A stretch of DNA of 64,000 nucleotides from Dictyostelium discoideum (Eukaryota), in assembly GCA_000004695.1 (NCBI GenBank), contig CM000153.2, forward strand, positions 1,888,001 through 1,952,000, given 5' to 3'. The notes below the pieces were generated by a model. It was not told the DNA's origin. It made no database searches and worked only from the letters and a program-made list of their open reading frames with translations. Positions 13,736-18,586 of the stretch are shown here, one piece after another. Position 1 is the first letter of the stretch. Each line of letters opens with the position of its first letter. Both the position numbers and the translations under genes were made by a program.

Positions 13736-14909
13736 TTATTTATTTATTTTAGTATGTTTTTTAATTATATTAATAATATTATTTATATGAACAATATCAT
13801 CATTGTTTTTATTAAGAGATGAAAGAGAAATTACATTTGGATCAGTATCGTCAATAGAAACTGTTGTGAAGACATTTGACTTTGAGGATTTAACATTCTC
13901 ATATACCATATTGGTAAGAACTGGATGAGGGGAAATTTCAACAAAAATTAGTTTTTTTGCACCATTTAATTCAAACTTTTTAATAATATCATGAGTTATT
14001 GATTCAGCATCAACACAAGATCTAATACTTTCAAAAATATTGAATGGATTTGATTGATCATAGAGTTTACCATTATATGAGCAATAAGTTTGAATGATTG
14101 AATTTGAATTTGAATTTTTGATTTCAACATCTTTAGTTTTATTAGCATAGTCTTTAATACAATCTAATGCTGATGAATGAAAAGGGATTTTCGAAGGTAT
14201 TCTTTTAATGAAAATATTATTTTCTTTAAACTCTTTTTCCAATTGTTCAAATTGTTCTAAATTACAAGTTGCCATTAAAGTTGAAGAATTTGAAAATTTG
14301 GCAGAAACTTCAAGATCTGAGTATTTGTTAGAGTATTTTTCATTGAATTGATCTGCTCCCATTTTTATGAAAAATGGTATACCATTTGGGTTTAAATTAT
14401 AAAATGTGTCCATTAATTTTGCTCTTTCAATAAGTAAATCACATACTGATTTTAATGATAAAATACCAGAACAGTATAAACTTGCCATTTCACCACAACT
14501 AATTATATAAATATATTTAATAATTAATAATTATAATAATAATAAAAATAATAATAATGATTAAAATAATAAAAAACAATTACCTAATACCAAAAATACA
14601 AGATGGTAATATCATTTCACTTTTTAATAGTTCAAACATTGAAACTTGAAACATAAATAAAATTGAATGTGTTAAATATTGGTCTTCATTGTTTTTATCT
14701 TCATTTGTTGATTTTCTTAATTTATTTAACATTGATTCACCATTAAAATAATTTATTTTTAAATAATTATCAATTTTATCCATTGATTCTCTAAAAATTT
14801 TATTTCCTTTATAAAGTTCTAATGCCATTTCACCCCAATGCACTGCTTGACCACAAAAATGAAAAACAATTGGATTTAACTTTGAAAAATCATCAATATT
14901 ACTATTCAT
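13736..14909 (-). CDS. standalone FabD/acyltransferase(AT)-like protein, paralog 1 (2 exons, 362 aa)
   Basis: Exons 14909..14584 and 14498..13736. The AT motifs are FHFCGQAVHWGEMALELY, DQYLTHSILFMFQ, the nucleophile elbow G-I-S-C-G-E (split as ag|t across a phase-2 intron), LIERAKLM (a conserved Arg) and IPFHSSALD (the catalytic His). Confidence 0.7.
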
Positions 14910-15618
14910 ATTATCTATGTATTTAAGTATTTATATGTATATATAAATATGTATGTATATATAATTATATATTTAAATAATTTTAAATAAAAAAAATTAA
15001 TTAATTAAATTAATTTTAAGTTAGTATTTATTGTTTTTTTTTTTTTTATTTTTTTAATTTTTTTTTTTTGGTTTTTTTTTTTTTTTTTTTTGTATATTTA
15101 TCGATATCTTACTTTTTTTATCCACCATCCTTGTAATTTGAGAGCTTTTTTAATTTTCAAAATTTTTTTTGAGTGGTAAAAATATATAAATAGATGTGAG
15201 ATTAATAATATATTTTTTTTTTTATTTTTTTTTAAAAAAATTAATATTTTTATTTTTATTATTATATTTTTATTATTATATTTTAATTTTTTATTTTCAA
15301 ATAATAAAAGTAATAAAAAATAATTTAATTTACAGTTTTTATTTTTGGAGTTGCATTCATTTCACATTGTTTATTTTTATTCATTTGGAAGATAATTAAA
15401 ATTCTTAATCAAGTGAGAAAACAATTTTTTTTTTTTTTTATTTTTTTTTTTTTAAATTAGAATATTACTGATCATCATCCTAACATCATATCATTAAATC
15501 TTTTAGATTATTATTTCATTTATTTTTTATTTATTTTTTATTTATACTTAATTTTTTTAGTGGTGTTTAATTTTTATTTTTTTTTTATTTTATTTTTATT
15601 TTAATTATTGTGTAATCT

Positions 15619-15722
15619 TATTATTATTATTATTATTATTATTATTATTATTATTATTATTATTATTATTATTATTATTATTATTATTATTATTATTATT
15701 ATTATTATTATTACTATTATTA
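15619..15722. repeat. (ATT)n microsatellite of about 33 units between AT-like paralogs 1 and 2
   Basis: Read directly from the sequence. Confidence 0.9.
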
Positions 15723-15725
15723 AAG

Positions 15726-16903
15726 TTATAAATTTCTTTTTAAAATTTCTAAAATTTCATTAAAATGAATATTGTCATTATTGTTTTTATTTAATGAGGA
15801 AAGTGCTATTACATTTGGATTATTTTCAATATTTGAAGTTGTTGTGAAAATTGTTGATTTAAAAGTTTTTACAATTTCAAACATATAAGGTGAACTAATT
15901 GGATGAGGTGATAATTCAACAAATATGACTTTTTCTTTACCATTTGATTCTAGTGTTCTTAATATATCTTCAATAGCAACTTTAGTACAAAGACAATCTC
16001 TTATACTTCTAAATATGTTGAATGGATTATTTTCATTATAGATTTTACCATTTGATGATGTATAAGTTGGAATTTTGAATGAAAATTCATTAAATTCAAT
16101 ATCCTTTATTTTCAAAGCATCTTCTTTAACACAATCAATAACAGATGTGTGAAATGGGATTTGTGTATTTAATCTTTTAGTTTGAATTCCATTTTCATTT
16201 AACTCTTTAAAAACCTGTTCAAATTGTTCAGAGTTACATGTACCAAATAATGTAAAAGAGTCTGTATGACGACCACCAATTTCAACATCTGGATATTTCT
16301 TTGAATAGTTTTTAATGAAATCATCACATCCAATTGAACCAAAAAATGAAAATCCTTTTGGACACTTTTTCAACACAACATCCAATAACTTTGCTCTGTC
16401 CATTATTAAATCACATGCTGATTTTAATGTTAATGCACCAGAGCAATATAAACTTGCCATTTCTCCACAACTTTTTAATAATAATAATAATAATAATAAT
16501 AATAATAATAATAATAAGAATAATAATAATAATAATTTTTAAATTAGTAAAAATATTAAATATTAAATTATAATAATAATAAAATTAATTACCTAACACC
16601 ATAAATAAAAGATGGATTTACACCTTCGCTTTTATATAATTCAAATAATGAAACTTGAAACATAAATAAAACTGAATGTGTTAAATATTGATCTTTATTT
16701 GGAGATTCATCATCACCAAGTGATCTTAATTTATTTAACATTGATTCACCATCAAAATAATTTATTTTTAAATAATTATCAATTCTATCCATTGATTCTC
16801 TAAAAATTCGATTTCCACTATAAAGTTCTAATGCCATTGTTTTCCAAAGTGTAGCTTGACCACAAAAAATAAAAACAATTGATGAATTATCATAACTATT
16901 CAT
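15726..16903 (-). CDS. standalone FabD/AT-like protein, paralog 2 (2 exons, 351 aa)
   Basis: Exons 16903..16593 and 16470..15726. The intron position and phase match paralog 1. Motifs are G-V-S-C-G-E, DRAKLL and IPFHTSVID. An (AAT)n microsatellite sits in the intron. Confidence 0.7.
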
Positions 16904-17433
16904 TTTAAATTATTTACAAGGGTATAAAAAATTATTTATAAAAATTAAACACTACAAATGTTTTTTTTTTAAAAAAATAAAAAATAAATTTATTTTGTTT
17001 AAAAAAAAAATGTTTAGTGTGGTGTTTTTTTATTTTTATTTTTATTTTTATTTATTTTTTTTTTTTTTAAAAAATTAATTATTAAAAATTTTAAATCAAA
17101 AAAATTATTTAATCAAAGATTTAAATGATATGTATTTGAACGATACAAAATTGTATTAAAACTAATAAAAAAAAAAAAAAGTAAAAAAAAAAAATTTTTT
17201 GGAGAGCATATATTCCAAGTTATCTGCCTTCCCTATATTCTGTTTTTTCAAATTATTTACCTTTTTTTTTTTTTTTTAAATATTTGATACCTGTTTTTTT
17301 TATTCATTTTAATTTAATTTAATTTTTTTTTTTTTTTTTTTTTTTTTTTTTTTTTTTTTTTTTTTTTTTTTTTTTTTTTTTTTTTTTTAATGGATATATT
17401 AAATATTAAATATTACTTATTATTATTAAAATT

Positions 17434-18586
17434 TTAAAAGAGTTTTTTAATTTCTGAAATTGTTTCATTAATTGATATGATATCATTTTTTGATCTTTCA
17501 AGTGTTGGTAAAAAAGTTATATTGTTTTTGTAATTTTCACGCAAAGAATTAAACAATTTTGAATCTATGGTTTTTAATGATTCTTTAATAGTTGGGATCA
17601 TTGTTGGATTTGGTGATATTTCTACTACGATAACATTTGTTCCTCCATTTTCTTCAATAAATTTAAAAATATTATGATGAGTTTTAACATTTTGGACTGT
17701 ATTTCTAAGATTTTTAAAAAGATAATTTTGATCAAATTTTAATGAACTATTATTAAACATTTCACCAGTTACACTCGAGAATAATGGTATTGCTGATGGT
17801 TTTGGTATGAATATCTGTTTTAAAACATCATCTTTTATACAATCCATTGCACTAGTGTGAAATGCAATTTGTGCAGGATAACTTTTTACTTGATATCCTT
17901 GTTTCAATACATCATCATAGAGTCTATCAACTTGTTCTATGTCACCACATCCAACATAAACGTGTTTTGGTGATAATATTGCTGCCATTTCAACATTTGG
18001 ATATTTCTCTGAAAATAGTCTATTGTATTCTTCACAACTAATATCAATTCCAATTAATTTTGCAGGTGCATTTAATGATCTTACCTTTGATGTCATTGAT
18101 GCTCTAAAAAATGAAATATCGCAAGCAGTTTCTAAATCAAGTGTTCCTGAACAATATGCTGCTGATATTTCTCCACAACTATTACGTATAATAGAATAGA
18201 ATAAATAAATAAATAAATAAATATAATTATTATTTTTTTTTACTTTTTTTCTTTTTATAATATGTTTGTTACCTTGTTCCAAAAATTACAGACGGAGATA
18301 TTCCTTCACTTTTTAATAATTCAAAAATTGATACTTGAAACATGAATAAAAATGAATGAACAACAAATTGATCTCTATTTGGGATTGCATCATCTGGCTG
18401 AGTTCTTAATTTGTTTAGCATTGATTCCCCATTAAAATATTTATTTTTAATAAAACAGTCAAGTTTATCCATTGATTCTTTAAAAACTTTATTTCCATTA
18501 TATAGATCAAGTGCTAATGTTTTTGTTTGTAATGCTTGTCCACAAAAACTAAAAAATATAAATGGTTTATTATCATTTTTAATCAT
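17434..18586 (-). CDS. standalone FabD/AT-like protein, paralog 3 (2 exons, 352 aa; the most divergent)
   Basis: Exons 18586..18273 (donor ag|GTAACA) and 18178..17434 (acceptor AATAG). Motifs are G-T-S-C-G-E and IAFHTSAMD. The N-terminal 35 aa of track ORF 17434..18282 are intron read-through. Confidence 0.65.

Follow-up and report, generated by a model that had tools for sequence, protein, structure and literature searches.

The 64-kb stretch of the Dictyostelium discoideum AX4 genome analysed here (the window) carries on its minus strand a tandem array of three genes, each of which encodes a free-standing protein of about 350 amino acids (aa) with the fold of an acyltransferase (AT) domain. 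The nucleophile elbow of these proteins reads G[IVT]SCGE, and the loss of the His that precedes the catalytic Ser in the canonical GHSxGE is linked to a Gln-to-His exchange at a pocket position in helix alpha4. The conserved Gln, Ser, His, Arg and Phe residues and a confidently predicted fold argue for a working ping-pong enzyme with an acyl-Ser intermediate, and on balance we consider it probable that the proteins handle malonyl or a similar small carboxy-acyl unit, acting in trans on thioesters of CoA or acyl carrier protein (ACP). The three genes themselves are already annotated and are not a discovery (NCBI: 'hypothetical protein'; UniRef: 'Malonyl-CoA:ACP transacylase (MAT) domain-containing protein'), and they are uncharacterised. 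New are the His-less, Cys-containing elbow, its coupling to a pocket change that is shared with bacterial acyl hydrolases (AHs), the ancestry from AT domains of polyketide synthases (PKSs) and the presence of at least eight such genes in three clusters. The array is composed as follows; residues are numbered according to gene 2.

13736..14909, minus strand: gene 1 (DDB_G0284373), 362 aa, elbow GISCGE; exon 1 14584-14909, intron 14499-14583 (85 nt, 4.7% GC), exon 2 13736-14498 including the stop codon; catalytic Ser codon split in phase 2 into AG, the last two letters of exon 1 (14585-14584), and T, the first letter of exon 2 (14498); spliced open reading frame (ORF) identical to XP_638591.1/Q54PR3.
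14910..15725: spacer between genes 1 and 2, 816 nt, 10% GC, with A/T homopolymers and a long (TAA)n microsatellite (~110 nt at about 15610-15722); no coding similarity to PKS domains.
15726..16903, minus strand: gene 2 (DDB_G0284453), 351 aa, elbow GVSCGE; exon 1 16593-16903, intron 16471-16592 (122 nt, mostly (ATT)n), exon 2 15726-16470; catalytic Ser codon within 16470..16594, as AG, intron 16471-16592 and T; spliced ORF identical to XP_638592.1/Q54PR2.
16904..17433: spacer between genes 2 and 3, 530 nt, 10% GC, with an uninterrupted A/T homopolymer of ~90 nt at about 17300-17395.
17434..18586, minus strand: gene 3 (DDB_G0284375), 352 aa, elbow GTSCGE; exon 1 18273-18586, intron 18179-18272 (94 nt), exon 2 17434-18178, transcript 5' end at 18609 or further upstream; catalytic Ser codon within 18178..18274, as AG, intron 18179-18272 and T, the junction being seen in a transcript; spliced ORF identical to XP_638593.1/Q54PR1.

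Each gene has a single GT..AG intron, and its removal gave clean ORFs of 362, 351 and 352 aa for genes 1, 2 and 3. The base composition supports these models, since exons have a GC content of 22-27% and introns and spacers one of 3-12%. Coordinates, strand and exon/intron structure had been given correctly in an earlier note on this DNA, and the ORFs match the annotated AX4 proteins exactly. The amino-acid identity was 57% between genes 1 and 2 and 40% between gene 3 and either of the others; the earlier note had estimated ~55% falling to ~35%.

A search with the Pfam profile Acyl_transf_1 (PF00698), which the earlier note had suggested, was highly significant for genes 1, 2 and 3 with E-values of 1.6e-22, 1.2e-24 and 3.4e-31 (80.8, 87.8 and 109.4 bits; gathering cut-off 32.7 bits). 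The best solved relative was the AT domain of D. discoideum Pks16 (9nju, E 5e-30), with which the Gln, Ser, Arg and His residues aligned, followed by bacterial cis-AT domains and then by the acyl hydrolase PksD (E 9e-18); FabD-type chains gave E-values of 1e-5 to 6e-8. An AlphaFold2 model of gene 2, built from an alignment of 17 family sequences, had a pLDDT of 90.2 and a pTM of 0.90 and showed the two subdomains of the AT fold, an alpha/beta-hydrolase-like core and a small ferredoxin-like subdomain. Foldseek matched this model to AT domains in the PDB with TM-scores of 0.72-0.82 and E-values down to 5e-22, the top matches being PKS ATs including Pks16 (9nju, TM ~0.8). Pfam, alignment, model and Foldseek thus agree on free-standing AT-fold proteins with the full set of Gln, Ser, Arg and His residues, as had been proposed before. 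The motifs quoted for this set were all recovered: F[HIS]FCGQA in all three proteins, GISCGE, GVSCGE or GTSCGE around the nucleophile, LIERAKLM in gene 1, and IPFHSS, IPFHTS and IAFHTS around the catalytic His of genes 1, 2 and 3.

Across the 17 aligned family members, which include genes 1-3 and are 38-90% identical, Q16, H76, S104, C105, G106, E107, R129, F210 and H211 are invariant. The Ser/His dyad is present upon alignment: S104 and H211, together with Q16, align with their counterparts in Pks16, with S99/H201 of PksD and with S92/H201 of FabD. Arg129 aligns with R117 of FabD and with Q124 of PksD, and the Ser104-Arg129 spacing of 25 residues equals that of S92-R117 in E. coli FabD, whose sequence was checked against 1MLA. 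The active-site segments are the best-conserved parts (52-77% identity) and the small subdomain is the most variable one (20-45%). The dN/dS values of orthologues were 0.23-0.40 against D. cf. discoideum and 0.22-0.36 against D. firmibasis, indicating that the array is under moderate purifying selection.

The replacement of the GHSxG His and of the following x position, noticed earlier from the motifs, is genuine. Immediately before the catalytic Ser stands I, V or T in genes 1-3 and A in D. firmibasis, and Cys follows the Ser. In a census of 517 AT-domain matches nearly all elbows were GHSxGE, and xSCGE was found in this Dictyostelium family only. A second position in the pocket changes along with the elbow: in helix alpha4, FabD (Q63), pks21 and two stand-alone GHSFGE genes have Gln, and every His-less Dictyostelium protein aligned has His (His76). 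Gln paired with the elbow His was found in 354 of 442 aligned AT domains. An alpha4 His combined with a non-His elbow was confined, among these 442 domains, to the Dictyostelium stand-alone family; ATs from other organisms without the elbow His had Gln (most of them), Trp, Leu or Pro at the alpha4 position, never His. The same pair does occur in PksD, whose GSSLGE and His71 align with the Dictyostelium elbow and His76.

What is known of PksD makes this pair informative. The GHSxG His is strictly conserved in ATs, where its role is not known, and AHs typically have G(A/S/V)SL in place of GHSL (PMC11775670, Fage et al.). His71 of PksD lines the acyl pocket, and its exchange for Ala abolishes hydrolysis; exchanging the residue before Ser (S98A, S98H) has little effect on activity (PMC11775670). 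From this description His76 is inferred to lie near the elbow in the pocket. The same study describes the Arg that salt-bridges the malonyl carboxylate and the Phe of xFHS that excludes alpha-substituted units, and it regards the missing Arg, replaced by Gln124 in PksD, as diagnostic of AHs. The Dictyostelium proteins retain both residues of a canonical malonyl transferase (R129 and F210-H211, invariant). Judged from the alignment, the active site is thus a mosaic in which two positions follow the AHs and the carboxylate-binding one follows the transacylases. A literature search for a described role of FabD Gln63 or His91 gave nothing useful.

Compared with the AHs PksD (8avz) and PedC, the proteins share the free-standing AT fold, the Ser-His dyad, the Phe of xFHS and a non-His residue before the nucleophile, and with PksD also the alpha4 pocket His; the I, V or T of genes 1-3 and the A of D. 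firmibasis were counted with the A, S or V of AHs. They differ from AHs, which have Gln or His at the carboxylate-binding position, in keeping the Arg. Further, AHs are encoded within trans-AT PKS clusters, whereas the three AT genes are the sole matches to PKS domains in the window, the other two clusters have no PKS neighbours, and the origin of the Dictyostelium proteins is independent. With FabD (1MLA/2G2Z), PksC and DisD they have in common that they are free-standing, with the two-subdomain fold, the Gln, Ser, Arg and His residues and the 25-residue Ser-Arg spacing. Unlike the Dictyostelium proteins, FabD, PksC and DisD have GHSLGE and Gln63, serve synthases without an AT of their own and are phylogenetically distant. 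The starter-unit AT (SAT) domains of fungal non-reducing PKSs have a GxCxG elbow with Cys as nucleophile and have lost the carboxylate-binding Arg. Here, Ser stands at the nucleophile position and Cys at +1, and the Arg is kept.

All close homologues that were found come from the D. discoideum species group, namely from D. cf. discoideum, D. citrinum, D. dimigraforme and D. firmibasis, all of which have arrays. The location between the exportin-5 side and Yae1 is kept in D. cf. discoideum, with three copies, and in D. firmibasis, where four copies lie at the syntenic locus (8440-14475 of the retrieved region). The old duplication of one ancestral gene put forward in the earlier note is upheld by this array common to sister species. 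In D. citrinum and D. dimigraforme there is one more paralogue (P0017/P0018) with the elbow SLSCGE, in which the first Gly is lost, and the GQ loop FSGQT. Neither this paralogue nor a relic of a fourth copy left a trace in the AX4 window: when the SLSCGE paralogue and D. firmibasis copy 1136 served as tblastn queries, the three known genes alone were returned.

A profile search of 1.84 billion representative sequences placed the family within PKS-AT sequence space, the matches being swamped by bacterial PKSs with several ATs, and revealed further stand-alone Dictyostelium ATs of ~350-450 aa. In D. discoideum isolates at least eight stand-alone AT genes are arranged in three tandem clusters, so that the array is not an isolated oddity. 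The two other clusters are:

4386-9053 of locus L003 (D. discoideum isolate, GCA_054859355.1): three genes with the elbows GMSLGE, GLSLGE (P0114) and GISLGE.
4154-7142 of locus L004 (D. discoideum isolate, GCA_054859385.1): two intronless genes, both with the elbow GVSCGE.

All three L003 genes have the alpha4 His and keep the Arg. The genes of both clusters resemble the array in size, fold and tree clade and in the linked loss of the elbow His and Gln-to-His exchange; the L003 genes differ in having Leu instead of Cys after Ser, and the L004 genes in lacking introns. D. purpureum DICPUDRAFT_27499 and D. dimigraforme ACTA71_011812 are also alike in size, fold and clade, yet have kept the ancestral GHSFGE and Gln. 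The second L004 gene has an in-frame stop codon at 5998-6000, between the equivalent of the GQ-loop exon and the remainder, and is annotated as a truncated protein of 329 aa; it may be a strain-specific pseudogene.

The phase-2 intron that interrupts the catalytic Ser codon (AG|T) was confirmed in all three genes and was found in every orthologue examined from D. cf. discoideum and D. firmibasis. The GLSLGE paralogue P0114, the middle gene of L003, has it as well. Since P0114 lies at another locus, the Ser-codon intron predates the array, which corrects the earlier note. Three PKS AT regions lack the intron, as do P0189, both L004 genes and the other two L003 genes, which are intronless (the GMSLGE gene of 1,047 nt equals its ORF); the D. 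purpureum GHSFGE gene has an intron at a different position and none at the Ser codon. On this distribution, the intron arose after the AT had become a gene of its own and before the array was formed.

In a bootstrapped neighbour-joining tree the stand-alone ATs formed a group (weak, 56%) next to the dictyostelid PKS ATs, with bacterial modular ATs and FabD outside. Within the array, the lineages of genes 1 and 2 were sisters and gene 3 grouped with the SLSCGE lineage, with 99-100% for the subclades. The ATs of Pks16 (9nju) and pks21 share with the stand-alone proteins lineage-specific features, among them a 'YCSG' segment after the elbow and a post-AT tail, and align with them at the Gln, Ser, Arg, xFHS and His positions. 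By sequence, the stand-alone proteins are thus descendants of AT domains of dictyostelid iterative PKSs and not of FabD. They differ from these domains in being free-standing proteins of 350 aa and not part of a synthase of 2,500-3,000 aa, in G[IVT]SCGE instead of GHS[LIF]GE, in the alpha4 His instead of Gln, in the oxyanion loop CGQA instead of GQG and in the Ser-codon intron, which the PKS genes lack. A PKS tandem array in a D. discoideum isolate (positions 1-16996 of the retrieved locus, GCA_054883475.1) contains, between two full-length PKS genes, a fragmentary KS/AT remnant annotated as proteins of 116 aa and 331 aa (P0013); PKS AT fragments thus arise by local decay. All three AT regions of this locus keep GHS[LI]GE and have no Ser-codon intron.

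Since the closest relatives of the array proteins are AT domains of PKS megasynthases, the three units might belong to a larger PKS gene or pseudogene as its exons or fragments, the objection that the earlier note had raised against itself. Each unit, however, runs from an ATG to a stop codon of its own, the spacers of 530 and 816 nt have only 10% GC, and five independent genome annotations call the units as separate genes of ~350 aa. tblastn of full-length pks21 (2,780 aa) against the window matched the AT segment only, three times, and no ketosynthase (KS), dehydratase (DH), enoylreductase (ER), ketoreductase (KR) or ACP segment. Furthermore, the RNA-derived Logan contig SRR24091725_5497 aligns to 18609-18273 and then to 18180-17503 with 99.7-99.9% identity and skips the predicted intron; it therefore represents a spliced mRNA, and gene 3 is transcribed and spliced as modelled, with a transcript that begins 23 nt upstream of the ATG. 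The reading as exons of one PKS was rejected on the transcript start, the spacer GC content and the pks21 search. A mitochondrial malonyl-CoA:ACP transacylase (MCAT) of the FabD type, as in type II fatty acid synthase (FAS), was rejected likewise: FabD-type chains scored far below Pks16 (1e-5 to 6e-8 versus 5e-30), FabD was a distant outgroup in the tree, and the AT fold begins at about residue 7-10, which leaves no targeting peptide. Both readings are effectively refuted.

In the explanation we favour, the AT domain of an iterative type I PKS from a dictyostelid would have become a separate gene by excision and would then have been duplicated in tandem. His211 would activate Ser104, and the acyl-O-Ser intermediate would be stabilised by the backbone NH groups of Gln16 and Cys105; the acyl group would then be passed to a thiol, either the phosphopantetheine of an ACP or CoA, or to water. 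Since Arg129 and Phe210, which is expected to exclude alpha-branched units, are retained, the acyl group is most likely malonyl or a small unbranched carboxy-acyl unit. The proteins may serve, in trans, the carrier domains of the ~40 Dictyostelium PKS/FAS enzymes. The linked exchanges of the elbow His for Ile, Val or Thr and of the alpha4 Gln for His76 would reshape the pocket, and the same pair in AHs suggests a shift from a plain malonyl loader, either in acyl preference or in how transfer is balanced against hydrolysis. The predicted pocket residues are invariant in 17 members and divergence is concentrated in the small subdomain (20-45%), which does not bear out the substrate specialisation proposed in the earlier note; if the small subdomain contributes to ACP docking, as in other AT domains, its divergence would fit a matching of partners better.

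Several observations weigh against this explanation. The elbow His, which is described as strictly conserved in ATs (PMC11775670), is missing. Modelling of the 40 D. discoideum PKSs gave a KS+AT region for each of them (PMC12828403), which leaves an AT that loads in trans without an obvious client. No PKS, ACP, KS or lipid gene was found in the window or beside the two other clusters. No transcript was found for genes 1 and 2 by exact-product look-ups, which covered genes 2 and 3 and returned no record for gene 2, a dN/dS of 0.2-0.4 indicates moderate constraint at most, and no paper naming DDB_G0284373, DDB_G0284375 or DDB_G0284453 was found in a literature search. A search on stand-alone or trans-acting ATs of Dictyostelium and on release factors likewise gave nothing specific. 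The trans-acting AT proposed in the earlier note is kept as the favoured reading but, given an elbow and alpha4 residue that resemble those of AHs as much as those of transacylases, as one of several live ones.

Of these, an AH-like editing function, the hydrolysis in trans of stalled or aberrant short acyl groups from the ACPs of PKS/FAS enzymes as by PksD and PedC in bacteria, is in our view rather unlikely. It would account for the aliphatic residue or Thr before the catalytic Ser, where AHs have G(A/S/V)SL (PMC11775670), for the invariant His76 that aligns with the pocket-lining His71 required for hydrolysis by PksD at a position where canonical ATs have Gln, for the free-standing nature of the proteins and for the rank of PksD among the top matches in sequence (E 9e-18) and fold. 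Membership in the AH family itself was rejected, the diagnostic Arg being kept (R129 aligned with Q124 of PksD); moreover, descent from dictyostelid cis-AT domains makes the AH-like features convergent, and the genes do not lie beside a PKS. Quite improbable, by our estimate, are transferases that off-load the finished acyl chain from the ACP of synthases without a release domain to CoA, water or another acceptor. A fungal analogue exists in the malonyl/palmitoyl transferase domain of FAS, which has the AT fold, retains the Arg and serves both for malonyl loading and for palmitoyl off-loading. A C-terminal off-loading enzyme is present in 21 of the 40 D. discoideum PKSs (two chalcone synthases, the rest thioester reductases), and 19 have no release enzyme, apparently including the main FAS Pks16, which is described as reaching from KS to ACP; pig FAS carries a thioesterase (PMC12828403). 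A family of at least eight genes with a fast-diverging small subdomain would fit many ACP partners. The proposal is, however, purely inferential, and Phe210, His76 and Arg129 predict a small polar pocket and not a channel for long chains.

That the genes are dead or decaying duplicates, be it as pseudoenzymes, as regulatory or scaffolding proteins or as genes being lost, we consider very improbable. The canonical GHSxG His is gone, the SLSCGE lineage (P0017, P0018) lacks the first Gly, an L004 paralogue has an in-frame stop in one strain, the copy number varies between three and four among species, and a dN/dS of 0.2-0.4 is relatively high. It is nevertheless clearly below 1; catalytic and pocket residues are invariant although paralogues are 40% identical, the array ORFs are intact in every genome examined, and gene 3 is transcribed and correctly spliced. 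The tolerance of PksD for S98A and S98H (PMC11775670) means that activity may survive the loss of the His.

A more speculative proposal, which we judge unlikely, combines editing with off-loading: the His-less family of at least eight genes would be the trans-acting partner of the 19 PKS/FAS enzymes without a release domain, apparently including Pks16, and would edit or off-load acyl chains on their ACPs, with paralogues matched to subsets of synthases via the small subdomain. If this were true, bacterial AHs or the fungal malonyl/palmitoyl transferase would have in this family a eukaryotic counterpart of independent origin. Dictyostelium has about 40 iterative PKSs, for which very few products or accessory enzymes are known; about half of them are without a recognisable release domain (PMC12828403). 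A family that was born from a cis-AT and combines features of a transacylase (Arg, Phe) with those of an AH (no elbow His, alpha4 His) in one site is a candidate for loading, editing or off-loading. Should the proteins be plain, redundant malonyl transferases, the result would be routine annotation; its significance would be considerably higher if the family were the missing editing or release factor of Dictyostelium PKSs.

The neighbours of the array in the window are housekeeping genes, encoding Yae1, a DCN1-like cullin-binding protein, exportin-5, an MFS transporter and PAP2, UCH, RasGEF, ERCC4 and BEACH proteins, together with a GH47 triplet. The latter is a second tandem family in the window, three two-exon genes for alpha-mannosidase-like proteins (Pfam Glyco_hydro_47, E 1e-82 for the first copy), and a further ORF is unrelated to the array:

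48430-55832, minus strand: GH47 tandem triplet, ORF pairs 48430-49314/49404-50051, 51365-52258/52339-52857 and 54363-55256/55269-55832.
44445-46814, minus strand: ORF of 789 aa with filamin/ABP280 repeats (Filamin, E 1e-41) and a complete C-terminal actin domain (Actin, E 1e-124), an actin fusion protein.

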